A DNA stretch of 63,928 nucleotides, filler included, from Reclinomonas americana ATCC 50394 (GCA_048213135.1; 6 parts of 4 records of this genome joined end to end with filler, not necessarily neighbours in it); one strand, 5' to 3'. Shown: positions 4,005 to 61,798, counted from the whole stretch's first letter. Program-made: numbers and translations. The notes: generated by a model from the letters alone, not told the origin.

Positions 4005-5991
4005 TTATTCATCGTCACCGGTCATGTTGTGCGACTCGAGTACCTCGCACTCTCCGACTTCGCGAGGATTGAAGGCTATTCTGAAAAACATGCCATCCGC
4101 ACCGGCCACTACAGAGAGAAGGAGGATGAGAGGACGCACAAGGCACAGGTCACACAGGGGAAGGAGCTACGAAACACATGATGGTGTGCTGGTCGGGCCC
4201 AAACGCGCAAATGGTGGGATTGTCCTCGATGCCCTTGTGCTGTGCGAAGCTCCACTCGGACTTGAAGTAGCCTTGGAAGCCCGAGAAGAAGGACATTCTG
4301 CAGACGAGTGCTGCGCGTGAGAGGAGAACATTCTCTCAGAGCAGATGCAAGCGCGGGGCAATAGACGCACTTGGACTTGGTGTTGGCGGCCGCCACCTCC
4401 TTTACCTCTCGATTGGCCGCATTGATTGTGGCCCTACAAGTGTAACGTGTGAGTGGTGCTTCAACGGAAAAATCCATCAAGCTCTACGCAACTCATTCGA
4501 TGCAAACACATGCGTGGTGCCTGACGAACTCGTGCAGCAAAAGTATCGCGTGTCCGCAGAAAAGGCACTGTTCGTACACACACACCATCAATACGCGGAT
4601 GACAATTTTGGAATATGCAGAGGGCGGAAACGCAACATGCAGTAGATGATGGCTGACTCGGCACCTCGTCGGACCTCCTGCAACTTGGTCGCACTGTGCG
4701 TGTCAAAGATGCGAATCAGCGTGCCCTTCTCCGAGGCCGTGGCCAACCGCGTTCCGTCCAGAGTGAGCGCCATACAGGCCAGAGCGGACTCGTGTGCGCT
4801 GACAAATGTCTGCTGCCGCGTGGCCAGGTGCTCAATGTGCACCAGACCCGGCTCGGTGCCAGGAATGGCCAGTGTGCGTGTCGACGCGCCGGGGGAGACG
4901 GCGACCAGGCCACGTGGGCTGCGTGGCGTCGGTAAGTGTGTGCAGAAAGACGGGGGGAGGGAGGGGGGATGGGGGAGAGGGGAGAGAGGAGATATAGAAA
5001 GGGAGGGGGGAGGGAGGGGGGATGGGGAGAGGGAGGAGGGAGGGAGGAGGGAGGGAGAGGGAGAGAGAGGGGGGAGAGAGACTGAGAGCGAGAGAGAGGA
5101 GGGGGAGAGAGACTGAGAGAGAGAGAGGAGGGAGAGACTGAGAGCGAGAGAGAGGAGGGAGGGGANNNNNNNNNNNNNNNNNNNNNNNNNNNNNNNNNNN
5201 NNNNNNNNNNNNNNNNNNNNNNNNNNNNNNNNNNNNNNNNNNNNNNNNNNNNNNNNNNNNNNNNNNNNNNNNNNNNNNNNNNNNNNNNNNNNNNNNNNNN
5301 NNNNNNNNNNNNNNNNNNNNNNNNNNNNNNNNNNNNNNNNNNNNNNNNNNNNNNNNNNNNNNNNNNNNNNNNNNNNNNNNNNNNNNNNNNNNNNNNNNNN
5401 NNNNNGAGAGAGAGAGAGAGAGAGAGAGAGCACAACAAGCAATTGTTGTCATTCTCCCTCTTGCTGTCCTCCCCGCGAGAGAGGAGAGAGTGACAGCGCT
5501 GTCTCTTGCTCTTAAACTCCCTATTCACTCTCTCCCCCTCTCCCTTTCCCTCCCTCTCTCTCCCTCCCTCCCCTTTCGGCCTCCCAGCAACTCACCGCCA
5601 TCCCATCTCTTCTGACCAACGCCAACACATTGGAACGAAAGAGCATCTCCACACCACCAAGGTTGGGAGAATCCCGCGTGAAAATGTCCTTGAAAGGGGT
5701 CGTGTTGGCAATCTGACAACACACACAAGAACGACATTGATGATAATGATCAAGATGATGAGCGACTGACAGTTGAATTGTGTGAGAATCAGAGTGAGAC
5801 CTTGAAGCCTGACTTTTGCGCAATGGCCACGCATGACGCATCCTGTGTGTGTGAGAGAGAGAAGAGAGAGTGAGTGTGTGTTTCATTGTGAGAGGATTTC
5901 TTCCTCACTCTCTTTCAACACGCACTTGATTCCAGGCGAGTGAGGTGATCGCAGACTCGCGGTCTTCTCGCGCACTCAGACGCAGTGACAT
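4005..5991 (-). CDS. ATG18: ATG18/WIPI-family PROPPIN autophagy protein (multi-exon, part in gap)
   Basis: Spliced translation MSLRLS...AWNQ|DASCVAI...VEMLFRSNVLAL...LATASEKGTLIRIF...EVRRG...IYCI|AFSAD...YFKSEWSFA; lipid-binding xRRG motif; GT-AG junctions in phase. Confidence 0.9.
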
Positions 5992-6180
5992 TGGGAGGGG
6001 TGTGTGTGTGTGAGGTGCGCGCGATCGAGAGACAGAAAGGTTGGTCGCAGGACAGCAAAGGACACTCTTTCATTCTTCCTCTCTGCTGCGTGACAGGTGG
6101 AGCGTGCATCACTGTGGACGCAAGGATACGCACAAAGCTTTTTCTGTGTGTGTGTGTGCTCTTTTCGATTGACACACCTC

Positions 6181-6941
6181 ATGGACGCGATCTCAATGGG
6201 TGGGTACACAGTGAGCCACATCTGTTCCTGTTGTTTCTGATTGACACACTCCTTCACAGACGCTGTGCGTGCACAAGCGCGGGCCGCGCAAGCGACTGCC
6301 GCTCTTGTGAAAAGTAACAGCGCGAGGCTGGTTGAAGCCGTGGCCCGATCTCGTCGTGCAGCTGGTATGTACATGTGAGGTTGTGAGACACGCACGCAGT
6401 CGTTGAGCAGCGTGCGGTTTCCCGCAGCACTCGCCGGAGAACGCATGACCAAGGCCGCCTGTGACCACGGAGCGACTGACTCATGATCACCAGCTGTACA
6501 AGAGGCCTCTTGTGTCGGTGAGTCTGTTGGTGATGTTGATGGCCATAGCACGTCTCCACCCCTGCTCCGACGATGCTCTCTCTTTTCTCTGTCTGTTCGT
6601 TCATATTGTGCATGGTGTCTATTTCACGCCTCCGCCGGTCAAGCGTTGATGGTGTTCACTCAAGTGGGATCGTGCACAGACCACGTCGCCGGAGAGGATA
6701 CATCAAACGATGTACAAGTGCTGCGTGTCGATTCTGCGCTCGGGCCGTGCGATATATTCGTGTGGTTGACGAGGATATGCGAATCACGTTGCCACAGCAG
6801 TGTCTGCTGGTGATTAGCACGCTGCACACCACTTCCACGTACGCCAGTACGATGGAACCAACGTCGGTTGCTGACATCGTTTGTGCCACGTGCGTAGCAT
6901 TCTACAGGTGTTGGTCTCCCGGAAAGATGGTTGTGGAATGA
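6181..6941 (+). CDS. Possible short multi-exon hypothetical protein, divergent from ATG18
   Basis: ATG at 6181 and plausible GT/AG sites around coding-like blocks (about 6260-6364 and 6798-6941); model not fully phase-verified. Confidence 0.25.
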
Positions 6942-7768: not shown

Positions 7769-9655
7769 CGTCGTACGGACCGAACGGACGGANNNNNNNN
7801 NNNNNNNNNNNNNNNNNNNNNNNNNNNNNNNNNNNNNNNNNNNNNNNNNNNNNGAGAAGCAAGTCTGCAGTGCTGCACTCGTCCATGCAGATCACCGTGC
7901 GATCTGCAGGTACGCAATGAAAGAGAGAAAAGAGAAGAGACTGAGAGCTCAATGACAGGCGGACAAGCCAGTCTGACCATTCTTCTCTCTCACGTCTACT
8001 TCCTCGGTCATGCAACCTGCTCATGTTTGACAGTCTCCTTCGTCCACCTTGCCATGTTGCATTCCTTCCTCTCAAGCACTCTCTCTTCCTCGGAAAAAGA
8101 CTGAGTGTCTGTTCTCATCCAGGCAAACACGCAGAGCGATGCACATTCACGAGTCTCTCTATACTTGACAAGTCGTCATGCCACTCATGACTCTTTCCCC
8201 CTTCCCGCAGACCTCGTGGGCCTCCACGAGATGAACCACGTGGGCGAGGGCGAAGGTATTCCCAACTACATGGCGCACCACGGGTACGCCGGCCATTACA
8301 TTGCGAAGGATCCGTCGCCGTGCACCGGCATGGGTTTCCCCGTTGCGTCTGCGTTCCCTCTATGTTGTCTTCTCCTTCCAACACTCATCCATGTGCCCGC
8401 AGGCCGATGGCAGCGCGCTGTATGCGCGCGAGGAGCGCTTCCGAATCGTGTCACATCGGCTGATCGAGTTGACAAATCCCGACGGCAGTCCCGCGTCGCA
8501 ACGGGCCGTCGGCGTGGTGGTGCAGGAGACGCACTCGGGCGCGCACGTGTGCTTTGTGGCGGCGCACTTGAAGGCAAAGAAAGGTGAGGAGAATGACCTC
8601 GTTCGCAAGCACCAGGCTGGCGAGGTGGTGCATGTGGCGCGTGAGATGGCCGCCACTGTGGGTCGCGACTGCGCGGTGATTGTGGCCGGCGATTTCAACG
8701 GGCCGCCAACAAGTCCGCTGTACGAGGTGATGCTGAACGGCGGGTTTATCAGTGCCTACAACACGGCGACGGAAAAGAGGGATCCGGCAGGTGAGATGGT
8801 GGGGGGGAGGGGGGCGGGGGGAGGGTGGGAAGGGAGGATAAGATCTCGGTATTGATTTTATTGCCTCTTGGGATCTCTTGTTCCACACTCTCTGCTCTGC
8901 ACCCGTTAGCGTGGACTCTGCGCCCTTGACTCTTGCACTCTTCGACCTTTTCCGCTCTCCGTTGAATGCATGACAACACGCTGGTCTCGTAACTCCGACC
9001 CTCCCCCTCTGCCGTTGCACTCTTCACATTCTTCCCTCTTCTCTTATCTCTTTTTATACGTGACAACATTTGGGCCATCAACATGCGCTCTTGTCCGTTG
9101 AGTGCCTGTTGGCCCCTCTTCCTTGTGCCCTCCGCCCTCCGCGTTTTTGCATTCTTCCCTCTTCTAATCTCTGTGCTCTTGTCCGATGAGTGGATAGAGT
9201 ACTTTGGTCCCTTGTCTTCTGCTTTTCGCCACTCCCATGACCCCTTCCCCTCAACCTTGACCGTTGAATTCAACGCACCACCGTGACCTTACTTTGGCCG
9301 CCCCGTGACTCTTGCTCTCTTCACATTCAATCCCGAACCCGTGAACGTGTTACTGTTTCGCCCTCCACTCTCCACTTTCTTCCTCGACCTGCATGCTTCC
9401 CCTTGCACTTCACTCACCTCTACTTCCTCGTTTGTCCCCCCAGGAGAGCCATCCTACACCACGTGGAAGTTCCGCCCCACCGAATCGCCCAAGCACGTGA
9501 TTGACTACATTTGGTACGACCCGAAGTACCTGACCGTGGAGCGGTGTCTGTCGCTGCCCACGGAGGACGAGATTGGCGAGAACGGCCTGCCGAGTGCCAT
9601 GTACCCGTCGGACCATCTGTCGCTCGGAGCCGATTTCTTGATGGACCTGTATTGA
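7412..9655 (+). CDS. Nocturnin-like EEP-family phosphatase (CCR4/nocturnin)
   Basis: Exons give FHWNVLADGLA, LLEWGYREPLII.E, LHEMNH, AHLKAK, VAGDFN, YTTWKFR, DYIWY, YPSDHLSL; first intron has a GC donor (AAG|GCACAC). Confidence 0.9.
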
Positions 9656-37073: not shown

Positions 37074-40000
37074 AGTTCTCACATCCGTCCTCCCTGCGCG
37101 TCATCACATCTCCGTCTTCCATCGTCCACATTCTTCTCTCGCTGCCTCTCGTCTGACTTGCTGTGGTTCCTCTCATTTCTGTCTCTCCCTGTTCGCTGCA
37201 AACCAAGACTCCTTCCTTCTTTCTCTGGATCTTCTCTATCTCTCTCTTCTCACCCGTTCTCACACTTTTCGTTTCTGTCATTCATGTTTCTTGCATATTC
37301 ACTCTCCGTCCCTCTAGAGAGAGATGTTCCACACGAAGAGAAGCAGTCATGATTTGCATTGGTCAGGGAGAGAAAGTGATATGAGAGAGGGAGATACCAA
37401 GTGAATCACAGGAGGCAGTGAGAGGAGGAGGAGAGAGAGAGAGAGAGAGAGAGAGAAAGAAGAGGAATAAGAAGCGAAGTGAATCACATGAGGCAGCGAG
37501 GGTAGAATGGAGACACACACACTCTCTCTCTCTCTCTCACCCGTTATCATTTCTTTCTCTCCCTGTTCGCTGTAAGTCATGGCTCCTTCACTATTCTCGC
37601 CCCTCGCTACACACGCTGCGCTTCCTCAACCCCTTTGCCTCCACCTGCGACTCACTTTCATCCAGCGCCGACCCACTCGGCCTCTTCTTGACGCAGTAGA
37701 AGATGCGGATGCCGTCGGGACTCGGCACACACTGGCATTGCAAAGAGTGTCGCACAGAGCTGAGCGAGAGGAGGGTATGATGTGAGCGAATGCAGAGGCC
37801 TGACGACGGCTGCAGGCTCACGCAACTCAATAAAGACGTGGAATCTCGAGATCGCCGCATCCACATCCGTCAAGTCGCGCGCCATGTTGAGCATGGCGTG
37901 CCGGCGAAACACGTGCACCAGTTCTCCGACGGTGTCGACGGACCAGAAGCGCAGCAGGTCGTAGTTGCCGGGCTCCAGCGTCATGCGCAGGAGGCGGCAG
38001 GAGCGAATGTCGTAAACGACCTGCGAGAGGAGTAAAGAAAAAAAAGGTCAGACTTCTCCATGTGACAGCGAGCAACAAAAAACATGAGAAGCCCTCCTGT
38101 GTGCTACGATCGGACGCACATAGGCGCCTTGCAGACAACTCCAATTCTCAAGAGATCAAGATGACAGAGATCTCACAGACAACGAGCGACATAGGCGCGC
38201 TGAATGTGCTCCCACACATAGACAACATGCACACGCGGGAACAGCAGCCACTTGCTACCCCACACTTCCGCTGCCATCGGAAATGCACCACACTCCTCCA
38301 ACAGCTACCTCAAGAGATCAAGATGACAGAGATCTCACAGACAACGTATGACACAGGTGCTCCCACACACAGACAACATGAACACGCGGGAACTGCAGCA
38401 ACTTGCTATCCACACACTTCCGCCGCCATCAGAAATGCAACACACTCCTCCAACAGCTGCCTCAAGAGATCAAGATGACAGAGATTTCACAGTGATACAG
38501 GCGCGCTGAATGTGCTCCCCACACACAGACAACATGCACACGCGAGAACTGCAGCCACTTGCTATCCACACACTTCCGCTGACACCCTCGACAGCCTGTC
38601 TGTACGACTCACTGTCCTATCCTGGCTCTCCACTCTTTCCGCACGCAACTCGCAAGCAAAAGTTGCACGCCTCGCGTCGCAGCTCCACGTCAATGAGACC
38701 CGGTGCAGCTGGCAGACACACGACTGTGAGTCTGTGAACCTCCCAGAGCACCGCCGACAAATTTTCCGCCACTCACCCTCAGAATAGAATGTCGCGCTGG
38801 CCTCCTCCGCAATGGCCTCGAGAGCCGACACGAGCGCGCGACCGGGTGGGCTGAGGGCGACGGCCTGGTGTAGTGATGCGCGCAGCGTGGATTGCTGGAG
38901 GACGTCTTTGAAGTGGCCGAGTTCCTCCACCAGCTGTGAAGGGAGATGGGTGAAATGGGGGGCAAGGGAAAGGGAGAAGAGCTAGTGGGGAAAGGATGAG
39001 GGGGAGACGAAGAAACATCCCGCAAGGAGAGGGGTGATGTGGGGGCAAGGGAAAGGGGAGGAGGACCAGAGGGACAGGACGAACAATCCCACAAGGAGAA
39101 GGGCAAGGGAAAGGGTGAAGAGGAGCACGAAAGGGAAAGGACGGCGGAAGACGAAGAAACATCCCGCAAGGCGAAGGGCGATGTGGGAGTGAGGGAAAGG
39201 GAGAAGGGGAGCACCAAGAGGGAAGGACGGCAGGAGACGAATAAACATCCCACAAGGAGAACGGTGGGATGGGGACAAGGGAAAGGACGGCGGGAGACGA
39301 AGAAACATCCCGTTAGGCGAAGGGCGATGCGGGAGTGAGGGAAAGGGAGAAGAGGAGCACAAAAAGGGGGAAGGACGGCGGGAGACAAAGAAACACAAGG
39401 AGAAGGGTGAAATGGGGCAAGGGAAAGGGAGGGAAGGACGGCAGGAGACGAATAAACATCCCGCAAGGAGAAGGGCGAGATGGGGGCAAGAGAAAGGCAG
39501 AAGAGGAGCACCAGCAGGAAATGACGACGGGGGACGATGAGGAATCCCCCAAGGAGAAAGGTGAAATGGGGACAAGGGAAAGAACGTAGAGGAGCACAAG
39601 AGGGGAAGGAAAGACGATAACAAATCGCACAAGGAGCGAGGCGATCACATGATTACGCGCGCCACGCAAACTGTTTTGCACTTCATGGAAAGTGTGCGAG
39701 ACGGACAGGGAAAGGCAGAAAAGTATCGAAAAAGAAAGAAGTGGAAAGAGAATGCAAACGACGTTACCTCAATCATGCGCGTCTGCTGCTTCACTTTCGG
39801 CAAGCGCTGCGTGAGCGACTTTTCGAGCTGCGCGACACAATGAGCATAGCATTCCACCCTCCTCCTCCTCCACCTCACAACACGAAACGATTTGACCGTG
39901 CAATTGTTGCCTGAGCATGAACAGTGAGGAAAACAGACGACCATTCAGAGAGCGCCCACCACTTCTCTACGCACCGCCGATCCTCAAAGTCATTGACCTG

Positions 40001-45107: not shown

Positions 45108-48100
45108 TCAGGCGGTGCTCCGACTCGGTGTCGAAGCCGCGGAAATGCACAATGGGGGGACGGGCTTCGAGGAGGTTGCCGGCGCGGCCAATGGATTTGT
45201 ATTCTGGGGGAAGAAGGGGAAGGGAATGGGTGAGGGAGGGTGAAAGGGTAAGTGAATGATGAAGATGATGGAGAGAAACAGGGAAGGATGGCGGTAAGGA
45301 CATGGTTGAGAGAGAGGGGGGGGGGAAGAGGATGTACGAGCGAAGACGGTGAATGACACAGAAAGCAACAGAGAGACAGGCTAGTGTGTGAGAAGAAGAG
45401 AGGTGCAAGTGAATGAAAGAGTGACAAAGAGAGAGAGAGAGAGAGAGAGAGAGCATGGCAAGGAGAAGAGGGTGTGAGCACGAAGACGGCGAATGAGAGA
45501 GTGCAGGCGAATGTGTGAGAGAAGATAAGGATGAAGAAGAGGATGTCAGCAAGAGCAGAGACAGAGAGACAGGCTAGTGTGTGAGAAGAAGAGAGGTGCA
45601 AGTGAATGAAAGAGNNNNNNNNNNNNNNNNNNNNNNNNNNNNNNNNNNNNNNNNNNNNNNNNNNNNNNNNNNNNNNNNNNNNNNNNNNNNNNNNNNNNNN
45701 NNNNNNNNNNNNNNNNNNNNNNNNNNNNNNNNNNNNNNNNNNNNNNNNNNNNNNNNNNNNNNNNNNNNNNNNNNNNNNNNNNNNNNNNNNNNNNNNNNNN
45801 NNNNNNNNNNNNNNNNNNNNNNNNNNNNNNNNNNNNNNNNNNNNNNNNNNNNNNNNNNNNNNNNNNNNNNNNNNNNNNNNNNNNNNNNNNNNNNNNNNNN
45901 NNNNNNNNNNNNNNNNNNNNNNNNNNNNNNNNNNNNNNNNNNNNNNNNNNNNNNNNNNNNNNNNNNNNNNNNNNNNNNNNNNNNNNNNNNNNNNNNNNNN
46001 NNNNNNNNNNNNNNNNNNNNNNNNNNNNNNNNNNNNNNNNNNNNNNNNNNNNNNNNNNNNNNNNNNNNNNNNNNNNNNNNNNNNNNNNNNNNNNNNNNNN
46101 NNNNNNNNNNNNNNNNNNNNNNNNNNNNNNNNNNNNNNNNNNNNNNNNNNNNNNNNNNNNNNNNNNNNNNNNNNNNNNNNNNNNNNNNNNNNNNNNNNNN
46201 NNNNNNNNNNNNNNNNNNNNNNNNNNNNNNNNNNNNNNNNNNNNNNNNNNNNNNNNNNNNNNNNNNNNNNNNNNNNNNNNNNNNNNNNNNNNNNNNNNNN
46301 NNNNNNNNNNNNNNNNNNNNNNNNNNNNNNNNNNNNNNNNNNNNNNNNNNNNNNNNNNNNNNNNNNNNNNNNNNNNNNNNNNNNNNNNNNNNCCGTGCGC
46401 CTGCTCAACATCTCCGCCAAGGGAACCCGCATTCACATTGTGGCCCCGGAGACCCCGTATTTCGTGCTCGAGTATGACAAGAAGGGAGTGGTGCGCATGC
46501 AGGGGAGGGAAAAGGGGCGAAAGAGTGGGTTGTGTGCCGTATCTCTTTGTATCTGTTATGGGTGAGCGTGTCAAGAATTGAGAGGCTGAGAGAACGAGAG
46601 CGTGTCTGCAAGAAGTAATATCTTGTGATTTCATGATTATTGTCTTGCTTGCCTTTCCGTTGTGGGTGAGCCTGTGGTGAGCGTGTCAAGAAGTGAGAGT
46701 GAGAGAACGAGAGTGTGCCTGCGAGAAGTAATATCTCGTGATCTCATGATTATTGTCTTGTGTGCCTTTCCGTTGTGGGTGAGCCTGTGGTGAGCGTGTC
46801 AAGAAGTGAGAGTGAGAGAACGAGAGTGTGCCTGCAAGAAGTAGTATCTTGTGATTTCATGATTGTTGTCTTGTGCGCCTTTCCGCTGTGGGTGAGCCTG
46901 TGGTGAACGTGTCCAGAGTTGAGAGTCTTGAGAAACGAGAGAGTGTGCCTGCAAGAAGTATTATCTCGTGATCTCATGATTATTGTCTTGTGTGCCTTTC
47001 CGTTGCGGGTGAGCCTGTGGTGAACGTGTCAAGAGTTGAGAAGCACAGAGAACGAGAGTGTGCCTGCAAGAAGTATCTCGTGACTCGATGATGCCCCTGT
47101 TCGTTGAGCTGCGTGCTTCAAGAATCGCGAAGTGCGTGTTGTGCATCATCGTGTACCGTTCTCCTCTTGTTGGAGACTCCTCCCTCCTTCTCCCTCCTTC
47201 TCCCTCCTTCTCCCTCGCCTTCTTCCTCCTTCTTCCTCCTTCTCCTTCTGTTCTCTCTCATCTCTGCCTCTTTGCCCCGCTGCATACTTCTCCCAATCAC
47301 ACTTATTCTCCGCATTCGTTGATTCTGCATGCTCCTTGCGATCGTGCGTTCCTTTTGCGTTCTCCAATGCACAGCCGCTACTGTAGCAAGACTAGTTTAC
47401 TGTCTCGCTCCTTCGTTCTCTGGGCGTGTAGAGTGACGCTCTGAATGCAGTTGTTAACTTGTACGTCCCCTTTTCCCAGATCCAACCCGGCATGTCCGAG
47501 GAAATCTCCGTCGTCTTCCTGCCCGCCGAGCACCGCTACTACTACGACTGCATTCGTGTGCACACCGAGGGCGACGACGACACAAACATGGTGATTCCGC
47601 TGCACGCGTACCCGGTGGTGAGCCAGGGCGAGGTCTTCCCCAAGCGTGTGGATCTCGGCAAGTGTGCCCTGGGTGAAACGTTGCGTGTCGAGGGAGGGAC
47701 TGTCTGAGAGAGAGAGAGAGAAGGGACAAGTGCGAGTGCTTCCGCTCCGTTTGTCTGAATGACGACTGCTTGCATTTGAGGTGTTGCTCCCGTGACTTGC
47801 ACTCATTCATCCTTCTCCTCACCCACCCTTTCCCTCACCCTCCCTTCCCCTCACTCACCCTTTCCCCTCGCTCCCCTCCTTCACCCTTTCCCCCTCTCCC
47901 GCAGTGTCACCCGCGTCATCCCCATCCACTGCGAAGTCCCCGTGGAATTCGAGTTCGAAATCGCCGTCCTGCAGTCCTCCATCGACATGGACATTACGCC
48001 ACTGCGCGGTACGGTACCGCCCAACGGCACGGCCGAGATCACCGTGCAGTTCACGCCCTCGCGTCTCGCCACTTGCATGAGCAAAATCGAGCTGAGTTTG

Positions 48101-48983
48101 AGCCAGTTCGAGTCCGAGCCGATTGTGTGCACCATTGTGGGGACGGCGGCGGCGCAGGAGGTGGGTGTGTGTGATGGGGGAGAAGGAAGGGAGATGCGGT
48201 GAGAGAGAGATGGGGGGGAAAGGGAACGAGCAACGAAAGTAGAAGTGAGAGTGGGAAGAAGGACAAGAGGGGAAACGGAGAGAAGGAGAGCGAGAAAGAT
48301 CAACAGCTGAAAGAGAGAGAGAAGGATGGGGAGAAACGGCGGGACAGCAAGGATTTGATAGTACACACGAACTGCGTCGCTCTTTGTGCATCTCTCGACC
48401 TGTTGCTCGTTCTCTCTCACTTTCTTGCTGTTGTTCTTTCTCGCTCTTATTGTCACTCTTCCCTTGTTTCTCGCAGTCTGTCTTTTTCTCATGTTTCTGC
48501 TTCGTTCTCCCTCTCTCTCTCACTCTCTCGCAGTTGTGTTGTCGATTCGTCTCTGTTGCCTTCCACTTTCTCTCTCTTTCTTGGGGTTTATTGCTTGTTA
48601 TCATTCCAGCTCTTTCCTTACTCTTTCTCGCAGTCTCTCCTTTTCTCTCTTGTTGCTGTCATTCATAATCCATTATCGCTCTCATTGTCACTTTTTCTTG
48701 TTCTCTGTTTCCGCCTCCCGCTTCCTTGCTTTTGCTTCAACTGTTTTACTCTCATTGACTCTCTCTCTCTCGCGCGCGCACACACATACTCGCCATCTCA
48801 CAATCTCTCTCGCTTTATTTGTTATACTTGTCGCTCTTCTCTCTCACACACACTTCTCCCTCTCTCACACACTTTTCCTTCTCTCTCTATTTCACTTATC
48901 TTTCTCGCTGTATGATTGTTATCATTCCCACTCTTGTTCTTACTCCTTCTCCCCATCTTTGCTATAACTCTCATTTAACTCTC

Positions 48984-50727: not shown

Positions 50728-50849
50728 NNNNNNNNNNNNNNNNNNNNNNNNNNNNNNNNNNNNNNNNNNNNCTTTTCTCCCTTTCCTATCTTTCCTCTCT
50801 CTTCCTCCTCTCTCTCTCTCTCATCCTTCTTTCCCTTCCCCTCGCTCAC

Positions 50850-53800
50850 CTCGCCGGGTCGAAACCAAATCCATTGACGCTCACGGTGGAGGCCGTGCTG
50901 GAGGCCACCACCACCGCCGGGGTGATACTGGTCGTGCCCTGCACGTACAGCGCACCGGTACCCACGGTCTGGTACTGCGGCGAGTTGCCGACCTTCATGC
51001 ACACCAGGTACTGGTTGGCCGCCGAGGCCATGGTGGTGACGAGTGCGGTGACCTTGGTGCCGTCGGTGCCCACCGCCGCTGTGCCGGTGACGGTGACGCC
51101 AGCGGCTGCCGCGGTGCCGCACGTGGCTCCCGTCACCACCTGAATCGAGTCCGATGCGCTGAGGCCGACACCGGTGATGGTGACCGTCGTCGCGGCTCTG
51201 TAAAGGAGAAGGCATAAGTAAATGAATGGTTGAACGACAAAGTTCTGGTCCTCCTCACTCACCCTGGCGGAATCGACACTGGGCTCAACGAGCTCGCCGC
51301 CTGTTTAAGAAATGCAATCAGTCGCACATTATTTATCAATGAGCGTACACAGCGACGCAACAGTGATGGTAAGAGTGCCATTCGGGACGGCAGTGAAGGT
51401 GCCGCTGCCAAGCCTGCGAAAGAGCATAACAATTAAGCAGGAGAAGATACGAAGGAATGAAGGCCTCAACAGGCACGCAACTGCAAACACACAGTGTACG
51501 GTCCAGCACTCGCGATACCCGTGGCAGTCACGGCAGCGAGAACGCTGGTGCTCGTCGACATGGCGCTGACCATGACTGTGATGGCCGCCGGCTGCGTTGC
51601 CGAGCACATGGTGCCAGTGACGAGCTTCACATTCGGGCTGTTTGATGGAAAGAGAGAGTGAGTGGCTGGCGACTACAGATGGTGGTGCGTTCATCATCAT
51701 CACAGACATACCTCGCTGCGAGACCAAAGCCTTGAATGGTGACTGTGGTCTGAATGTCGTGTGTGATGGCTGATGGCGAGATGCCAGTCGAGCTGTGCAA
51801 AGAGAAGAAGAGGGCAGAGGGAAAAGGGAGAGGGAGGGAGAGAGGGCAGTGGGAAAAGGGAGAGGGAGGGAGAGGGAGAGGGAGGGAGAGGGAGGAGATT
51901 TGTGGAAAAGGGAAAGAGAGCGAGAAACAGACAGACAGACAGACAGACAGAGAGACAGACAGAGAGGAGATGGAGGGGGAGAGATGGAGAGTGATAGACA
52001 AACAGACAAAAAGAGAGTCAGCGAAAATGACACGACCACCAACTCGTGCAGCAACTGGTTTACGTACCCCTGAACCACGAGCGCGTTGGTGGCTGGCACC
52101 GCTGGTTGTCCATTGATGCTGCAGACAACCCTTCTGTCAGCACTTCTTTCAGAATGTCACACACGCAGTTGATGCTGTTGACGCAACACAATGCACACGG
52201 TGAAGGCACCGGGATTGGTGCCAGTGACCTGCACATAGAAGAAGTTCAGCACACCGCTCTCCATTATCGATAAAGACATCTCGGGAAAAACGCAACAGGA
52301 GTCGAGATCTGCTGCGCGGAAGTGACAGTCACCGCGCCAAACGTGACCGAGTTAACCGCGGCACTCGTGCACGCAGAGTTCTGCGCCACCGCCGTGAACG
52401 TGGGAGTCTTGTCGAGACCGAAGCCGGTGAAAGTAATGACGGTGGCGGCGGCGGGTACAATCGTCAGCGGAGTCGCGTTCGTCACACCCTGCGGAGCCGA
52501 GATGAGCGCGTCATCAAATTTCTTCTCGCAACAGGAACAACAACAAGACCTGCACAGTGAGATTGCCACCCGTCACGGCAGCGTACGAATTGCCACCCGT
52601 TGGCCTGCATGCAGGTGGGTGAGCACGGATTTGATGAAAACATGTGGCTCGACGTTGACACGCAACTGAAGGCACACGATAAACAGGTTCGGCGTTGTGG
52701 TCGTCGCAGACACCACGAGCTGGGTCGGCGACGGTGAAGCGCGGTTCGTGATAGTGATGCTGGCGTCCTGCGCATTGCCGGTGCATGTGCCGCCGGTAGC
52801 AATCACCTTGACAAGATCGGTGGCCGCCAGACTAATTGCGAAGAGTGTTCAGCATCATCGGCGTTGGCATGAAACAAGATGGACAATATGCGCTCACCCG
52901 TCGCCATTGATGGTAAAGGCGGTCATGCCGACCGGTACCTGAGTCGGTGTGATCGACTGTGTGCCTGTGGAGGGAAACAGAATGTGAGCTTCCCATGCAG
53001 ACTCCAAGAGACAGCAGCCTGGTCTCACCTTGCACAAACAAGTCGCCCGACACATTCACAGCGGTGCCCATGCCACCATATCTGCAGAGGATAAGAAACT
53101 AAGCATTTGTGTCGAGGACGACGCAACACAGGATACTGTTGAGGCGCACGCAACTGGATGCACATCACATACTGTCCTCCAGTATTACCAGTGCCATTCA
53201 CAGTCACCGCGAATGCAATGCTGGTGGTTCCAGTCGCCGTCACTGCACCGACCGTAATCTGTCAAGGGTCGTGCGCGGGCGATGAGTTCATTATGTCTGG
53301 ATCTATTGCCATCTTCCCTTCGACTCTCATCCTCTGTTTTCATCTCTCTCTCTCTCTCTGTCTCCCTTGGCCTTGGTACTTATTCTTGTTCCTGTTATCC
53401 TTCTTCTCCTTGTTGTTGTTGTCGTTCTTCTTCTTCTACTTCCTCTTCTTCTTCTCTCTCTTGTTCTTCTCTTCAATCTTCTTCTTCTCCTTCTTCCATG
53501 TTCTTCTTCTTCTTCTTGTTACTGTTGTTCTCTCTCTCTCTCCCTCTCTCCCTCCCTCCCTCCCTCCCTCTCTCCCTCCCTCCCTCCCTCCCTCTCTGCC
53601 TCTCCTGTCCCTCTCCTCCATACCGTGCCCGGAGTGGTACCCGTGGCGCAGTTTGGCGTCGGTGAGGCCGGCAAAACGGCGATCTTGTCCGCGCCCGACA
53701 GCGCAAAACCATTGACCGTCACCGTGGTGGCGGTGGCCGGCGGAATGGAGGTCGGCGAGATGCCAGTCGTGCCCTGCACGGTGAACTGGCCAGTTTGCAG

Positions 53801-56800
53801 CGGAATGTACGTTCCCATGGCGGCGCTCGACGGGCTGCATTGTGCGTGAGCTTTGGAGAGAAGAAACCTCACTCACACAGTCGGCAAACCTGATGCAGGC
53901 CTGGAAGGTGCCTGGCGGAGTGCTCACGTTCAGCGAAGCGGTAATCACGGTGGCAGAGCTGGCGGCCACAGTGCCGACAGTGATGCTGGCGACTTGCGCG
54001 TCGCTGCACGAACCGGCCGCCGTGACAATCTTGACGCCAGTGGTGGCTGCGGAGGAGAATCAGAAAAGAGGTCACAATATATCTCAGTTGACTCTCTTAC
54101 AAATACCAGTCAATCCAACTCCAGTAATGGACAGCACAACGCCGTTGGAGATTGAGAGCACTTGCGGAGTCAGCGATGAACCGCCTGCACATCATTACCG
54201 ACGCATGAGCTAATCTTCCCCACAAATCACCCTCCTACGCACACACGTATGCAAACCTTGCACAGTGAGCACAGCGGAGCTGGCCACCGGCACAAACGTC
54301 GGCAGCAGCTGACCGCGCAGCTCGCCGGCCGCCACCGCCGCGGTCGGAATGTCAACGTACCATTGACCGGCCAGGAGTTCGTTGAGCACCTGGTTCGAGG
54401 TCACGGTGACATTCTGCGTCGGCACGGTGCCCGAGGTGCTGGCCGGCACGTTGGTGAGAGTGGCAACCAACGTGCCCGTGGCGCCAGGCACAGCCGGCCC
54501 GTGAATCTCCACTGCCGTCGGGTTGCCCGACAGACCGGCAAAGGTGACCGACACGGAGATGGAGGTGTTGCCGGGCGCGACCACCACGGTGGCGGTGCCG
54601 GAGGCGTTGTTGACCTGGCCAGCCTGAGCGCCGGTGAGGACGCCGCCAGCCGTCACCGCGGGCGCCGCTTGCCCGCGGATCTCACCATTGGTGTTGTTCA
54701 CCGTCTCCACATACACGTACCACATGCTGCTCTGCAGATCGGCCACCTGAGCCGCCGACACGGCGAAAGTCTGCGGTCCCAGCGTGCCACTGGTGTTGGC
54801 CGTCGGCACCGTCATCGCGAACAGTGCGGGCCCGGTGGCGCCCGCCGCCGCCGGTCCATGAATGCGCGCGCCCGTAATGTTGGAGCTGAGAGCAGTGTAC
54901 TGCACCGTCACCGAGATGCTGGTGGGCGACACGACCGTGATGGTCGCGGAGCCTGCCGCGGCGCCCGGATTGGTGGGCGCTGGCACATTGGCCGCAGATG
55001 TCAGCGCCATGTAGTAATTTGACGTGCCACTGTAGGCGATGCACAGAATGTACGTGTTCGGCGCGCTGGCCTGAATGAACGGCGTCACCGAGGTCGGTGG
55101 CGACGACACGTCGGCCGAGATGGAGATGCCATTCGGCTGCGCGTCGGTCGCGCAGTTGCCGGCAGTCGGCAGCATCTTGAAGGAGGCGGAAGCTATAAAA
55201 GGGAATAGGGTTGAGAAGAAGAGGAGGTGAGGAAGAGAAAGGGAGGGTCGTCGCTCACCGGAGAGACCAAAGCCGTTGATGGCCACTGCGGATTTGATTG
55301 TGGCCGGGATGGCGGTGGAGCCGACGGACGTGGTGCCTGCACGCAAAGGAGGGTTTTAGTTAAGGATGAATTCCGAAAACTTGGAGAAGTATGTGTGTGA
55401 GTGAATACCCTGCACAGCAATCGGCAAGGCGAGGCCGCTGAAGAAGGCGGTGGCGTTGGCGAACCTGCGAAAATGGAATGAGTGGGCAAGAAGGAGAAAA
55501 AAGTTCAACAAAGAAAGGAGTACGAGGAGAAGGGGAAGGGGGAGAAGGGAAGAAGAATTTCTACAATCTTCGCGCACACGCAACTTGATGCACACAGTGT
55601 ACGTGCCGGGGGTGGCGGTAGCCGTGGCGACAAACACCGACTGCGTGCCATCGACGCCGGCGGTGATGGTGTTGCCGACGGTGAAGACGGTGGCGGTGGC
55701 CGAGCAGTCGGTGCCCGACACGACCTTGATGGTGTCGGTGGACGAGAAGCCGTAGCCGGCCAGCGTCACCGAGGTCGGAATCGTGGCCATCACAAACGAG
55801 GGCGACGGTGCGGCAGTGACCGCCTGTCCGGACAGAGTGCCAACGGCGGCGTAGGCGGTGGTGGTCGCGGCGTCCGCGAACCTTTTGTAGAGGGTTGTGA
55901 GAAACAGTGTGGGCAAATAGAACTGGACAGATTGACGCAACTTGTAGCACAGCGTGTACTGCGCGCCCGTAGTGAGAGTGATGGGGAAGCTCACGGCGGT
56001 ATTGGCGGTGACCACAGCGGGTGTGCCGACAGTGACGCCGCCCACCATACCGCCGTTCACGCAGTCGCCGTTGAAGGTGACCACCTTGACCGCGTCGGTG
56101 GCCAGCAGGCCGAAGCCGTTGATAGTCACTGTGACGAGGGAAAGGGATGAGGGAAAGGGAAAGGGGGAAGAAGGAAAAGGGGGAAAGAGGGAAAGGGGGA
56201 AAGGGGAAGGGGGAAAGGGGAAGGGGGAAAGGGGGAAAGGGGGAAAGGGGGAAAGAGGGAGAAGGGGGAAAGGGGACAGGGAAAGGCGGGAGCGTCAGGA
56301 GAGCTGAGAAGAGAGTGTGTGTGCGCGGAAGCCGAAAGCGCAGTGCGTGTGTGTCGTCCACATAACCGCTTCAAGAATGTGGTATCTCTCATTCAGTCTC
56401 GTGCTCTTACTGTCTCAGTTATTCTCTGCTGCGTTCGCATCCTTGAGTTGCTGTTGTACTCTTAACTACGTCTCAGTGCGTGCGCGTGTCGGTGAGTGTG
56501 CATCTTCATCTCTCCAGTCCGCGCCTGCTGCACATTGTTGCGGTAATGCGCTCTCCTCTTTCTGTGTGTGCTCCGCATTTCTCTTCCCTCTCACTCGCTC
56601 CATTGCACTTGCTGTGAACTTCATGAAGTTACAGCAGCGCACGCTTCCGTTCCCTCTCTCTCTCTCTCTTTGTGTGTGTGTGTGTGTGTGTGTGTTTGTG
56701 TGGCTGCCAAATCTTTCCTCACAATGTGAGACAAGCGACGTTCAACAAAGTGCATCGTTTCTCCTTTCCTCCTCCTCATCTCTATCCTGCTCTTGCTGAT

Positions 56801-58107
56801 CTCTATCTTGTTCATGAAGAGAGTGAAAGTAAGAGAACATTAAAGGGTGAAAAAGAAACACAGATCTGTGCTAGAAAGGGCAAACATTGAACAGTCACAA
56901 TTGCATCTCTGATGCTGCTACTCCCAGGCATCGGTATCCATTCTCTCCGCCGTATTCTCTTAGTCTGCTCGTTCCCCTTTCCTAATCGTTCCCCTCCCCC
57001 TACCCCTCCTCCTTTCACTCACCCGGAGTGGCCACAGTCAACGGAATCGCCACCGGCGTCAGCGTCGTCGTGCCCTGCACATAGAACATCGTCCCACCAT
57101 TCACGTCATAGAACGCGCCAGTGACAAACTGGATGCACACGCGGTAGGTGCCAGCGGCAGAGCCGGCGACACTCGCCGTGAGATTCGGGGCCACGAGCGT
57201 GATATTCGCGGCGGTGATCGACATGACAGCGGCGTCGGCGCAAGTGCCAGCGGTAGTCACGAACTTGATCACATCAGTGGCCGCGAGGCTGCACGCGCCT
57301 TTGGAATGAGCGCAGAGGCAGGACGAGGAGAGTTTCAATTGAATGACGCAACGCCAGTCCCGTAATTGTGACCGTGGTGGCCGTGCCAGGCGGTGACGGA
57401 AGACCCTGAATCGGTGAGAATCCGGTGGTGCCTGTGTTCAAAGAATCAGCAGCTCTTCTCTCTGCACAAAGTAGACGATACAAGACGCACCCTGCACCAA
57501 CAGCGGCGTCGTGGACACTGGCACTGCGGTTGCTGCCGTGCCCACCCTGCAGACCAAACTGCTAAGCGCCCATTCGAACAACGGAGAGAGAGGCGAGAGA
57601 AACGAAACTTGATGCACAGGGTGAGCGAGAGAACAGCAGTCGACTTGACAGTGAAGCTGTCGACTGTGCCGCCGACGCTGGTGATGGCGCCGATGGTGAC
57701 GTGCGCGTCGTTGGGTTGTGTGGCGCATGTGCCCGTGGAGATCGCAGTGATCTGCAAAGGCATTGTCAGCAATGAGGGGAAAAGGCACAGGGGATACGAA
57801 AGGTGCTGCAGACTTGCCTGATCAGTCATGGACAATCCAACGCCGGTGACAGACACCACAGTCGTCACGTCGTTCAGTGACACGAATGCCGGGGAGAAGA
57901 CTCCGGTGGGACCGCTAATGGAGGGAGATAAAGAGGTGAGAACTGAGCACGGGGAACGAGATGTTGAAGGAAGTGTACCTGACAGTGAGGGATCCTGTTT
58001 GGGGGGAGGGACGAGGGGAGAGAGAGGTGTAAGTGCAAGGGTTGGGATGGAGAGATTTGACTGAACACAAACCAGTCACAGCGGCGGATGCAGCGGCGCC
58101 GACAAAC
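50850..58107 (-). CDS. Giant Thr/Val/Ala/Gly-rich repeat protein (about ten ~100-aa two-Cys beta repeats) with two CHRD domains; both ends missing
   Basis: Repeat pattern GTT.ISP..IP..TATTVTI.GFGL..D.IKVV...C......Y.VC.K......L.VQG; CHRD motifs IHGPA..GATG...WYV...GE(I/L)RGQ twice in about 54305-55010. Confidence 0.88.
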
Positions 58108-58190: not shown

Positions 58191-58257
58191 AGAGGAGGTG
58201 GTGTGTGTGTGTGNNNNNNNNNNNNNNNNNNNNNNNNNNNNNNNNNNNNNNNNNNNN

Positions 58258-58269
58258 TTAATTAATTAA
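58258..58269. other. Artificial scaffold linker
   Basis: TTAATTAATTAA flanked by N runs. Confidence 0.97.
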
Positions 58270-58337
58270 NNNNNNNNNNNNNNNNNNNNNNNNNNNNNNN
58301 NNNNNNNNNNNNNCAGTCATCGACTGGAAAGGCTCAC

Positions 58338-60910
58338 CGGTACGGCATCGGATCGGTGAGGAGGAATACGGCGGCGACCACGGTCTGGAATGAGGCGCGA
58401 AGCAGGGCGAAGAGTACCAGCATGGTGCGTGGTCTCAATATGTTGTACAGTGGGGCGCCGACTGTGTGGCATGCGATGAGTGCGAGAGAAGAGGGGGAGA
58501 CGGGAGACAGAGAGTAGGGGAAAAGGGGGAGGGAGTGGAAAGGGAGGGAGGGAGAGAGGGAGGGAGGAGAGGGGGAGAGAGAGAGAGAGAGGCTACGATG
58601 AGAGGCAGGTCGCCTCACGATCCACAGCGAGGGGAGCAAATAGTCGTGGTCGCATAGGCGGTAATTCTCTGTNNNNNNNNNNNNNNNNNNNNNNNNNNNN
58701 NNNNNNNNNNNNNNNNNNNNNNNNNNNNNNNNNNNNNNNNNNNNNNNNNNNNNNNNNNNNNNNNNNNNNNNNNNNNNNNNNNNNNNNNNNNNNNNNNNNN
58801 NNNNNNNNNNNNNNNNNNNNNNNNNNNNNNNNNNNNNNNNTGAAGAGAATCCCGAAGCTTGCTGACTTCTAGCATTCCCCCGCCAAGGTGGTTGTTTGTC
58901 GTATTATATTGTGTTGACCAGGCGTGCGTTGGTGAGTGCCATCGATTGTCGTCGCGTTTTCGTCTCCTCCTCACGTCATTCCTTCCTGCACAGGATTTCT
59001 GGACACTGCGCGGCAGGCATTCCCGAAATCCGTTGTCGGCGCACGGCACGACAAGTTGGAAGAGAAGATTTGTTTGGATTTGGTCAACTCGAATTAGTTG
59101 CGTGCTGTTGGCACACGTATACCGATGTGCTTTCTCTTGTCGCTCACCTTCGATTGCTGGTCACCACAGTCAGTTCTTCTTTGACTGGTGCGTGTTGCTC
59201 TCTCTTTGTTGGCTGCGCTGGATAACTAATTGTGCTCGTGCAGGGGGACAACTCTCGGTAAGCGAGCGCCACTTGGCATTTCCTTTCTGAGTCCGTGCCT
59301 TGTTAAGAATCCTATTTATCCTGTTTCATTTCTCTCTCTGTCACACCTCTCACTGTCATCCCTCGATTCCAACCCAATTTCTCCCCATGTCTCGCGTCTC
59401 CTTCTCTGTTCACCATGGCTCGCGTGGCCCTTCACTTCTGTTGCTCTCGCTTTCTCGTCTCTCTTGTGCCTCTCGCTTCGTGTCTCAGCACCCCCTGTTG
59501 TTCACCATGCATCTCGTCGTCATTTCCCGTCCTTCCCCTCCTTCTCCCCCCTTCTCTTCCCCCACTCTTCCCCTTCTCTTCCCCCTTCTCTTTCCCTCAC
59601 TCTTTCCCCCTCTCTTCCCCTCTCTTCCCCTCTCTTCCCCTCTGTTCCCCGCTTCCCCCCTTGTCTTCCCCGTTCTCTTCCCCGTTCTCTTCCCGTTCTC
59701 TTCCCCGTTCTCTTCCCCGTTCTCTTCCCCCNNNNNNNNNNNNNNNNNNNNNNNNNNNNNNNNNNNNNNNNNNNNNNNNNNNNNNNNNNNNNNNNNNNNN
59801 NNNNNNNNNNNNNNNNNNNNNNNNNNNNNNNNNNNNNNNNNNNNNNNNNNNNNNNNNNNNNNNNNNNNNNNNNNNNNNNNNNNNNNNNNNNNNNNNNNNN
59901 NNNNNNNNNNNNNNNNNNNNNNNNNNNNNNNNNNNNNNNNNNNNNNNNNNNNNNNNNNNNNNNNNNNNNNNNNNNNNNNNNNNNNNNNNNNNNNNNNNNN
60001 NNNNNNNNNNNNNNNNNNNNNNNNNNNNNNNNNNNNNNNNNNNNNNNNNNNNNNNNNNNNNNNNNNNNNNNNNNNNNNNNNNNNNNNNNNNNNNNNNNNN
60101 NNNCCCTTCTCTTCCCCACTCTCTTCCCCTTCCCTTTCCCTTCCTATCTCCCCCTTTCTCCCCCTACTCACCCTTCTCTCTCGCTTGTCAAAGGTCCCGC
60201 CGCCATCGGCATCATCATGCTGCGCACCAACAGCTTGTGGATTGTAAACCTCTTCATCCCACCCGGCTTCATTCTCGCCGCCATCTTCTTCCTCTTCCTG
60301 CCGGCCGACATTGGCGACCGCCGACACGTGCCGGTGGCAGCGGAGGTTCCTCTCCCACCTGACAGCAAGCCATCGCGATGGGATCGCATCGCGCCGGAGG
60401 CGTGCGGCTACATTTGTGGGTTTCCGCGTTTGCTTGTCGCGATGACTATTTTCTTCTTGCTGCAAGGTGCGACCTCCACTACTGTGCGTTGCTCGCGACT
60501 CATCTCACGTTGGCTGCCACACAGTGTACCGCTTGAAGAATGCCTATGCAGCGCTGTATAGTACGCAAGTGTTGCATCAGCGAATTTTCTCGCCGTGGAT
60601 AGTTGCGCTTGTCAATCATCCCTCCTCTTGTTCTTTTCCTCCTATTCTCCTCCTCTGACTCGTTCTTCTTGTTCTTGCTCTTCTTTTTCTCTCTCTCTCT
60701 CACGCGCACATTCGTCACTGCACTCTCTCCCTCGTTCCCTTTCTCTCTCTCTCTCCCCCCATTACCTGTGCAGTCAGTTGCCTCCATCTCTTTCTACATT
60801 TNNNNNNNNNNNNNNNNNNNNNNNNNNNNNNNNNNNNNNNNNNNNNNNNNNNNNNNNNNNNNNNNNNNNNNNNNNNNNNNNNNNNNNNNNNNNNNNNNNN
60901 TCTCCTCACA

Positions 60911-60959
<49 letters not shown>

Positions 60960-61798
60960 ACTCCTTCTCTCTCTCTCTCTCTCTCGCATTCTTTCTCCGC
61001 ACCATGCGCAAACGAGTAGCTGCTCAACGAGATGAAGCATTCGATCAGCAAGTTCGAGAATTGGGAGACGATAGAGGAAGAGAACGTGCACTACGCAAGT
61101 TCCAGACTGTGTGGCATGCAGTTGATCGCGCAGTCGCATGGCGGGGGAGAGTACGTGGCAAAGAATCGTCGGTTCTGAGTAGGAACCGTATTGAGTAGAC
61201 GACGAGTGGAGTCAAACGAATATTCCTTGCTTTTTCGATTGTTACTGTGAAGAATGACGAACTTACTGCTGTGACACGTTGCTGCAGAGGCACACAATTC
61301 TTCCATCACTGGCGTGCGCGGATTCGTTGTGAAGCTGACGGCGGCGCTGCTGCGCCTTGCACTGGGCGGAGCATTCTACTTGTCGCCGAATGACGGCGTC
61401 AAGGCGTTCATGTACTTTGGGTGAGTCAGTTCGTGTGCCACCAACAGCTCGGCGTTGGCGCCAGTACCCATTTGTGTGTCGCTTCCGCAGATATATGCTG
61501 TTGATCGTGGCTGGCGTCATGGCACTGCTGGCGTTTTTGCTGATGCACACTAGCACGGAGCCGAGAGATGGCTCGCTGGCAAAGCGCTCGCTTGTGCAGG
61601 ATGACTTGATGGCTGACGATGATAACGATGATGACGACGATGACGACGATGACGACGTCGATAGGCAGGGGAAGCAGAGAAAAGTTGCGGAGAATTGCAG
61701 CGGCAGGTGTTGTAATGTGGCGGTTGGACTGACGCATGGGAGTGTGCTCGTAGGGAGGCGACGAGGTCACCACCCCGTTGCTGAAACAACATAGATGA
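58338..61798 (+). CDS. MFS-type membrane transporter, partial; exon 58338-58461 is on an inverted contig
   Basis: Spliced hydrophobic helices RPRTMLVLFALLRASF...PYR|WLFVVLYCVDQACV|GFLDTARQAFP...VNSNY|QFFFDW|GTTL|GPAAIGII; acidic tail ending TTPLLKQHR-stop. Confidence 0.7.

Follow-up and report, generated by a model that had tools for sequence, protein, structure and literature searches.

The heptamer GTTGCGT behaves as the 5' end of a large class of predicted introns in a stretch of DNA from Reclinomonas americana ATCC 50394 (GCA_048213135.1), referred to here as the window (63,928 bases including 8,546 N, which fall in 37 runs; the known sequence amounts to ~55 kb, with a G+C of ~56%). The window is intron-rich eukaryotic DNA, and we infer from its sequence that GTTGCGT sites are spliced. 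Among the predicted donors GTTGCGT would be the commonest heptamer, its frequency near that of the whole GTGAG group, and about one sixth to one quarter of short U2-type GT-AG introns would belong to its class, with at least eight genes of the window represented. The reading preferred here, which is tentative and which we place a little short of even, is that GUUGCGU (the heptamer in RNA) forms a real second class among the 5' splice sites, recognized by a variant or co-evolved RNA that differs from the standard 5' terminus of the U1 small nuclear RNA (snRNA).

Few RNA-RNA contacts of eukaryotes are as strongly conserved as that between U1 and the 5' splice site. Its known departures either concern rare sites (the shifted and bulged registers of human introns) or are shifts of a whole genome, with or without a co-evolved U1. 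A genome in which a single heptamer, unpaired by standard U1 in silico and unaltered in old paralogues, serves about a fifth of introns next to an ordinary class would offer a natural test case for the co-evolution of donor classes with their readers and for the way they share the work. On the practical side, gene finders trained on one donor profile will misplace such junctions, and use of the GT that lies five bases downstream, within the motif, alters the reading frame.

GTTGCGT at the ends of predicted exons

A first-pass annotation of the window had listed 22 introns starting with GTTGCG, 20 of them with GTTGCGT. All 22 coordinates carry GTTGCG at the first intron base, seven on the + strand and 15 on the - strand, and 20 continue with T (the exceptions are 60602 and 61684). 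The heptamer is enriched as a word: both strands together hold 33 copies where an order-3 Markov model expects 10.8 (z 6.8), which ranks it fourth among GT-starting heptamers, with microsatellite and repeat words above it. Under the same model GTTGCGA, GTTGCGC and GTTGCGG occur in the window at expectation, and among the 16 GTNNCGT words GTTGCGT alone is enriched if the repeat word GTACCGT is left aside. No GTNNAGT word is enriched, and the idea of a wider class of GTNNCGT or GTNNAGT donors was set aside, as only GTTGCGT stands out.

The placement of these copies relative to coding sequence is that of donors. (What this means operationally is that exon cores were defined by codon score, without splice signals, and gene families were taken from Pfam.) Between the 20 codons before and the 20 codons after the site, the codon score falls by a median of 8.9 for the 29 scorable GTTGCGT and by 0.3 for 5,648 other GT (Mann-Whitney p 1.6e-6); GTTGCGT marks the drop from coding to non-coding sequence better than any other GT class. 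Taken as plain words, GTGAGT and GTGCGT show a drop near background, because most of their copies are microsatellite or coding sequence. With respect to strong exon cores, 21 of the 33 GTTGCGT are sense and two antisense, the other ten having no strong core nearby, and both antisense cases adjoin cores that we judge to be false antisense calls. Sixteen of the 33 lie within -15 to +40 nucleotides (nt) of the 3' end of a same-strand core, versus 9.5% of all GT (p 1e-8).

When all GT..AG pairs are listed that connect neighbouring cores (96 of them) in frame and without a stop, a procedure that is free of any motif model, there are 725 distinct candidate donors. GTTGCGT accounts for 18 of them (2.5%, versus 0.49% of all GT; 5-fold, p 3.8e-8) and is available as a candidate donor at 17 of the 96 core-to-core junctions. 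Expectation-maximisation (EM) from a neutral start makes it the most probable donor at 13 of the 96, and with a first-order donor model it takes 11 of the 42 best junctions. A Viterbi gene model with learned signals predicts 115 introns, which start with GTTGCG in 20 cases (18 with T at +7), GTGAG in 21, GTATG in five and GTGCG in three. (A neutral Viterbi gene finder that used GT and AG only gave too few introns, and misplaced ones, and was discarded.) The claimed abundance of GTTGCG(T) donors is upheld by enrichment, codon-score drop and frame-compatible candidates, which agree, and had in one respect been understated, that of the rank of the heptamer among donors.

At two sites the junction is fixed by homology. 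The WIPI3/ATG18-like gene reaches a stop 16 codons into read-through of position 4636, and the best three of 213 stop-free splice combinations, scored against seven homologues, use that donor with its 69-nt intron. In the asparaginase gene, the donor at 20203 with an acceptor ending at 19538 is the best of ten stop-free combinations scored against ten homologues and gives the gap-free alignment AFTTPN/YPTLG (the slash marks the junction, here and below); the exon upstream of 20203 matches Pfam Asparaginase with E 4.5e-41. The second GT inside the motif (+6/+7) was considered as the real donor and rejected for both of these junctions, where it scores lower; it may yet be the donor at 4492. Beyond 4636 and 20203, frame, stops or models support 13 of the 22, 47680 among them, and seven sites are weaker (three plausible, four unverifiable or doubtful).

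Eight or nine of the 22 sites fall in a single gene of tandem TIG-like repeats. Eight of its GTTGCGT donors are all used by the Viterbi model, where they constitute 8 of the gene's 29 introns, with intron lengths of 60-120 nt. Six (51481, 52187, 52666, 53154, 55584 and 55941) are paralogous and share one repeat position, C-[ILY]-[KQV], in phase 2. The interiors of these six introns are no more alike than shuffled sequence (score -0.37 versus -0.379 for shuffles), yet GTTGCGT is identical in all six, and the flanking exon is still weakly similar. Preservation of the heptamer while the interiors diverged argues for selection on the heptamer itself, and against its being a relic of an introner; the heptamer is apparently held by selection.

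Two repeats bear on the counts of the motif. A degenerate dispersed or tandem repeat at 44222-44830 (+), with units of ~100-170 nt of the form GAGACGGCTGT..GTTGCGTT(G/A).TGGGAGG, has five exact GTTGCGTT copies and two near copies, so that not all GTTGCGT occurrences are independent (four of the 33 are put down to this repeat); its appearance suggests that the intron at 44232 has repeatedly received copies of the exon-intron junction at which it starts. A tandem repeat at 12059-12445, extending to ~12690 (motif on the - strand; period 81/178 bp, the 178-bp unit being present in 2.2 copies with 92% matches), holds GTTGCGCTC five times. These are GTTGCGC copies, which inflate the GTTGCG count and are not donors.

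Two classes of predicted donor

G precedes none of the 20 predicted GTTGCG donors, versus 44 of the 95 other predicted donors (Fisher p 2e-5); the earlier remark that the last exon base of the class is never G passes this statistical test. In all 33 occurrences of GTTGCGT, G is found at -1 once, at 26950 (binomial p 0.03 against the 15% expected from local context, 3e-4 against the 28% base frequency). Among sites that are donor-like by codon contrast alone, 18 of 25 GTGAG and 0 of 19 GTTGCG follow G. The depletion is in part an effect of phase, since codon position 2 is poor in G: introns in phases 2/0/1 number 12/7/1 for GTTGCG donors versus 31/32/32 for other predicted donors, and a rough phase correction by hand arithmetic leaves p ~0.01-0.03. 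That GTGAG and GTGCG donors mostly follow G had also been asserted, and is correct for GTGAG; for GTGCG the count is only 6 of 20.

The 44 G/GT donors have a loose intron side, with G at +3 in 22, A at +4 in 18, G at +5 in 27 and T at +6 in 11; T at +7 is found in 18 of the 20 GTTGCG donors, as compared with that +6 T in 11 of 44. What defines the GTTGCGT class thus lies entirely within the intron (seven invariant bases, with G missing at -1 and phase 1 almost absent), and what defines the other class lies mainly on the exon side, as G/GU with a loose GAG after it. Exon-side and intron-side classes of 5' splice site have been described in plants and animals.

GTTGCGT had been viewed as the common GTGCGT donor displaced by one base. 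That view is only partly supported. The conserved block does lie one base further into the intron, reaching +7 instead of +6, with T at +3. On the other hand, GTGCG is not a common donor: it makes up only 3 of the 115 predicted donors, versus 21 GTGAG, and is donor-like at no more than the background rate (20 of 230, two of the 20 being the second GT inside GTTGCGT). Mere displacement of the usual profile would, moreover, make GTTGAG the dominant form. There are no GTTGAG donors among the 115, versus 20 GTTGCG, and the ratio of A to C after G is 21:3 in GTG[A/C]G versus 0:20 in GTTG[A/C]G (Fisher p 1e-9). GTTGAGT, which had been singled out as an analogue, does exist in the window (eight occurrences versus 5.1 expected); the copy in question lies at 23213 on the - strand, not at 23212, and is not used as a predicted donor.

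T at +3 is about as frequent as G among all 115 predicted donors (41 versus 42). Other predicted donors with T at +3 are found both after G (cag/GTTTGC, aag/GTTTGC, tgg/GTTTGT) and after other bases (GTTTCGT at 57608 and 39888).

Intron type

The class looks like a separate 5' splice site of otherwise ordinary U2-type introns. Its predicted members start with GT and end with AG, and taking them out restores the reading frame and, at 4636 and 20203, leaves exons that align with homologues without gaps. A CTNAY branch-like motif is present in 12 of 17 class introns and 22 of 41 others, its A at a median of 19 and 22 nt, respectively, from the 3' end; the motif is of the CTCAC/CTCAT type, ~20 nt from the 3' end, and common to both donor classes. 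The pyrimidine fraction before the 3' AG is 0.62 in class introns and 0.67 in others, and GCAG, which ends 12 of the 17, also ends introns of the other class. Median length is 68 nt for the class (range 58-225 nt) and 76 nt for the others, and composition is similar. Inspection of 15 class introns by eye shows no shared sequence beyond +7.

A U12-type assignment was considered and rejected. The resemblance is that of a minority class whose 5' motif is rigid over 7-8 bases, whose exon side lacks a consensus and whose phases are unevenly represented. The difference lies in the motifs themselves: GTTGCGT is not what we take to be the minor-class 5' motif, and the branch region, with CTCAY ~20 nt from GCAG, is like that of other introns in the window.

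Pairing with U1 snRNA

Pairing was calculated with RNAduplex, by nearest-neighbour folding with the standard U1 5' end, bulges and loops being allowed. For A, U or C/GUUGCGU the best duplex in any register amounts to -0.6 to -1.4 kcal/mol; the same calculation yields -11.8 kcal/mol for G/GUGAGU, -7.4 for G/GUGCGU and -5.1 for A/GUUGAGU. Only the G/GUUGCGU version of the class has an appreciable duplex, at -5.9 kcal/mol, yet it is the version that is avoided. By way of calibration, a human control oligonucleotide of similar predicted weakness (-1.6) is described as having no melting transition, and a working shifted site as lying at -6.5 (Tan et al. 2016, PMC4856993).

For the class, pairing of U1 in a shifted or bulged register had been proposed. 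A shift by one base is compatible with the exon side, where the -1 spectrum of the class (A10 C3 G0 T7) is not different from the -2 spectrum of G/GT donors (A20 C7 G9 T8; p 0.12). It does not suit the intron side, where the class has C in place of A and T at +7, and the standard U1 duplex in the +1 register is not clearly more stable than in the canonical one, within the -0.6 to -1.4 kcal/mol that is the best of any. A bulged register predicts a benefit from G at -1, as in ordinary donors, of which neither the predicted donors nor the bare occurrences show a trace beyond the single copy at 26950. A U1 of the Mastigamoeba type would pair in a shifted register with the class at -6.6 kcal/mol and with G/GUGCGU, a donor that is rare here, at -13.3. 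In this comparison of motifs no single recognition sequence appears to fit both donor classes well, and a second reader is therefore favored. A variant U1 or U6, which the first-pass annotation had offered as an alternative, would fit better than standard U1 in a shifted or bulged register.

Shifted-register pairing of U1 is reportedly used at rare mammalian sites. Both the shifted and the +2/+3-bulge registers are reported as experimentally proven in human cells, the validated register types covering ~1.5% and the predicted ones 5.1% of human sites (PMC4856993). As far as that account goes, these human sites share with the class a pyrimidine at +3, a paired block one base further downstream, cleavage at GU and an exon end that is not G. 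They differ in having measurable pairing with standard U1 and in being few, whereas here one heptamer serves ~17-26% of modelled introns, with a C at the position for which standard U1 pairing would require A, and with the very weak predicted duplex just described.

Atypical donors of whole genomes provide the other comparison. Entamoeba is described as having GUUUGU donors and a U1 with AACAAAC, Mastigamoeba as having GUGCGC donors and a U1 with ACGUAC, and both standard and modified U1 candidates are mentioned for Physarum (Roy and Bowser, bioRxiv 10.1101/2022.06.08.495308). The likeness to the Archamoebae is an atypical donor, with U at +3 (Entamoeba) or C opposite U1 (Mastigamoeba), that is explained by a changed U1. 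The unlikeness is that in those lineages, on the same account, the atypical donor is nearly universal and there is one U1; in the window two classes coexist, GTTGCG with 20 and GTGAG with 21 of the 115 predicted donors. With Mamiellales and Thecamonas the window shares C facing a U1 pseudouridine and a GC-rich, intron-containing protist genome; their donors are in the normal register, and normal-register GTGCG is here both rare and donor-like at background level. Archamoebae with a changed U1 and Thecamonas and Mamiellales with a standard one show, as far as the source goes, that both outcomes occur in nature. A literature search for GTTGCGT or GUUGCG as a splice donor, judged from its listings, returned no description of one, only primers and unrelated sequences.

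What might read the heptamer

In the preferred reading, the heptamer would base-pair with the RNA that reads it, and this RNA would carry a recognition sequence other than the standard U1 5' end. The likeliest such reader would be a variant or co-evolved U1-like snRNA that pairs with C at +5 and with the two G at +4 and +6; the G/GUGAG class would be left to standard U1, and recognition of the branch site and 3' splice site would be common to both. A bolder version, which we consider speculative and rather doubtful, makes this a two-track major spliceosome, in which a second U1-like snRNA complementary to GUUGCGU commits about a fifth of introns and standard U1 serves the G/GUGAG introns; if true, two 5' splice-site readers would stably share the work inside one U2-type system.

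Several points weigh against the preferred reading. A complementary variant U1 built like the standard one should favor G at -1, and G is avoided. The energy model is without pseudouridines and U1 proteins, which makes the pairing calculation an argument and not a proof. An Rfam scan of the window has no matches at gathering thresholds, and at E values up to 5 has only low-complexity matches of microRNA-like and small nucleolar RNA-like character, with no spliceosomal snRNA. Thecamonas and Mamiellales are described as having +4C donors (GYGCGY) yet standard U1 (bioRxiv 10.1101/2022.06.08.495308), so that a changed U1 does not necessarily follow from a C facing the U1 pseudouridine. The Viterbi census is partly circular, its donor model having been learned from the same data, and some of its acceptors are wrong (for example those for 4636 and 32881). 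The sample, finally, is the ~55 kb of known sequence, with 8 of the 20 predicted class donors in one repeat gene.

One alternative keeps one standard U1 (and U6) and lets it bind in a register shifted by one, or with the U at +2/+3 bulged, cleavage remaining at GU and proteins or other factors offsetting the weak duplex. It accounts for a shift of the conserved block by exactly one base, the T standing at +7 and not at +6, and for the likeness of the -1 spectrum to the ordinary -2 spectrum; its registers have the human precedent already cited, and lineages with +4C donors are said to keep a standard U1. We nevertheless regard it as unlikely. The predicted duplex is very weak in any register, the better-pairing GTTGAGT is unused, ordinary donors prefer A and not C at the matching position and have no preference for T at +6, a bulge should favor a -1 G, which none of the 20 predicted donors has, and the human registers serve a few per cent of sites, not ~20%. 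Less likely again is that U1 is not the main reader of the heptamer, and that a sequence-specific protein or later spliceosomal contacts (U6 or U5) take its place, with weak or no involvement of U1, the two donor classes then being the known exon-side and intron-side types. The strong anticorrelation of the classes in G at -1, the lack of a predicted U1 duplex and the seven fixed bases, whose information content is like that of a protein site, are what one would expect from such a reader, but no candidate factor is known.

Two further alternatives deny the heptamer a reader altogether. Most GTTGCGT sites might not be donors, the enrichment coming from repeats, from paralogy and from codon usage (for example Lys/Gln-Leu-Arg across AAG TTG CGT). 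Five copies do lie in the degenerate repeat at 44.2-44.8 kb and GTTGCGC copies in the 12.0-12.7 kb tandem repeat, the introns at 55584 and 55941 are in frame and stop-free, and when junctions of the TIG-like repeats are scored against the gene's own intron-less repeat copies, alternatives that skip exons score higher. Against this stand the two junctions fixed by gap-free homology, the many introns that shift the frame or carry early stops, the sharp drop in codon score past the motif, the 21:2 sense-strand bias near the ends of exon cores, and good acceptors with branch-like motifs 58-225 nt downstream; this alternative seems very improbable. The least probable of all is that the heptamer is the relic terminus of a mobile family of introner-like introns that brought its own donor, and not a separately recognized signal. 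An element that brings its whole donor would leave no exon-side consensus, as is seen, and might well be present in many genes, as the class is. Against such an origin, there is no similarity along the introns (the six paralogues are like shuffles, and the 15 introns examined by eye share nothing beyond +7); lengths of 58-225 nt also speak against it, and a heptamer that is unchanged where the rest has fully diverged would still need selection on the heptamer.

Individual sites

The coordinates of the class are collected in the table, and support at the sites not fixed by homology varies in kind. At 8342 the intron length forces a change of frame, the EM posterior is 1.0, the Viterbi model agrees, and the downstream exon matches Exo_endo_phos from its second residue. 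At 32881 the EM posterior is 0.93-0.94, read-through meets a stop after 16 codons, and the upstream exon matches positions 20-50 of the 70 of GST_N_2. At 47680 a stop follows after nine codons of read-through, the EM posterior is 0.77-0.99, the Viterbi model agrees, and the downstream exon is the Ig_CFAP65_4th match. Read-through at 29510 meets a stop after eight codons; the Viterbi model uses this donor, and the downstream exon matches ADP_ribosyl_GH, while EM preferred 29565 (posterior 0.3). For 4492, which scores 338.0, an alternative donor exists at 4487 in the form of the motif's second GT, with scores of 346.0 and 342.6. The phase 0 donor at 51361 does not fit (by manual reading of coordinates) with the acceptor ending at 51301, which the models pair with a donor at 51348. 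Single-exon Pfam queries for profile continuity across junctions gave no match in four of seven cases, namely three short exons and the 135-residue upstream open frame of the ADP-ribosylglycohydrolase gene.

Table. Predicted, candidate and doubtful GTTGCG(T) donors of the window (coordinates span the motif; on the - strand the higher coordinate is the first intron base)
Position	Strand	Gene	Phase	Intron	Remarks
4630..4636	-	WIPI3/ATG18-like	2	69 nt	donor; IYC-I/AFS
20197..20203	-	asparaginase	0	crosses N gap to acceptor ending at 19538	donor
8342..8348	+	endonuclease/exonuclease/phosphatase (nocturnin-like)	0	61 nt	donor
32881..32887	+	GST-like	0	69 nt (96 nt in gene models)	donor; two candidate acceptors
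37820..37826	-	no Pfam family match	2	67 nt	donor; EM posterior 0.98, strong acceptor, Viterbi agrees
47680..47686	+	ciliary Ig-like (CFAP65-type)	2	225 nt	donor; LGE-T/VTRVIP
29504..29510	-	ADP-ribosylglycohydrolase	0	58 nt	donor
51475..57352	-	TIG-like/CHRD repeat gene			eight GTTGCGT donors; first intron bases 51481, 52187, 52296, 52666, 53154, 55584, 55941, 57352
4486..4492	-	WIPI3-like			plausible donor; in variable loop
44232..44238	+			enters N gap	plausible donor; first of five GTTGCGTT copies in repeat; codon score 5.2 upstream, -8.1 downstream
61684..61689	+			70 nt (Viterbi)	weak donor candidate; GTTGCG with G at +7; codon contrast 1.7 versus -1.8
29789..29795	-		2	68 nt	candidate beyond the first-pass list; EM maximum a posteriori choice (posterior 0.6), Viterbi; codon score 6.2 upstream, -6.7 downstream
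38643..38649	-				candidate beyond the first-pass list; Viterbi only; weak codon contrast
26574..26580	-				unverifiable; N gap 60 nt upstream leaves 19 open codons; Viterbi puts site inside a longer intron
51355..51361	-				doubtful donor; coding frame reads through (core ends ...TLTITVASL)
59097..59103	+				unverifiable; codon contrast absent (0.8 versus 0.1); in neither gene model
60602..60607	+				unverifiable; GTTGCG with C at +7; N gap downstream; Viterbi uses 60488 instead

Genes and other features of the window

Codon-score cores and Pfam together identify two WD40 genes, a WIPI3/ATG18-like gene, the nocturnin-like endonuclease/exonuclease/phosphatase gene and a guanylate kinase gene, and further another WD40 gene, asparaginase, a kinase, ADP-ribosylglycohydrolase, a GST-like gene and a ciliary Ig-like gene. 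The last of these (47456-48169, +) had been labelled CFAP221. Its best Pfam match is instead a CFAP65-type Ig-like domain (Ig_CFAP65_4th; E 3e-11), and no CFAP221-specific family is among the matches listed. The best matches of the WIPI3-like protein are ~60% identical and taxonomically scattered, as are the nearest relatives of the asparaginase. Of two metagenome scans for relatives, one found none and the other found two loci at 56% identity, which were not used.

The long repeat gene that holds eight of the class donors extends over 50772-58100 (-) and combines the tandem TIG-like repeats with two CHRD domains within one exon of 381 codons (54213-55355). The TIG-like exon at 55575-55877 has no match in Pfam, and the CHRD exon has no usable match in the protein atlas and no relative in the metagenomes. 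One intron of this gene (55337-55408, -; 72 nt) starts with GTATTCACT and has TCCTTAAC ~22 nt before its 3' AG. TCCTTAAC resembles what we take to be the branch motif of the minor spliceosome, and the 5' end fits the minor-class motif partly; the resemblance may be due to chance.

The sub-threshold Rfam matches include plant microRNA families at 22531-22733, 17128-17281 and 30079-30340, which are long GA/CT-like, low-complexity, hairpin-forming stretches; none of them reaches the gathering score, and composition is the likeliest cause of all these matches. The guanylate kinase gene (11013-11288 and 9770-10254, -) has an apparent N-terminal extension, which seems similar to a dimerisation/docking domain of ciliary proteins.

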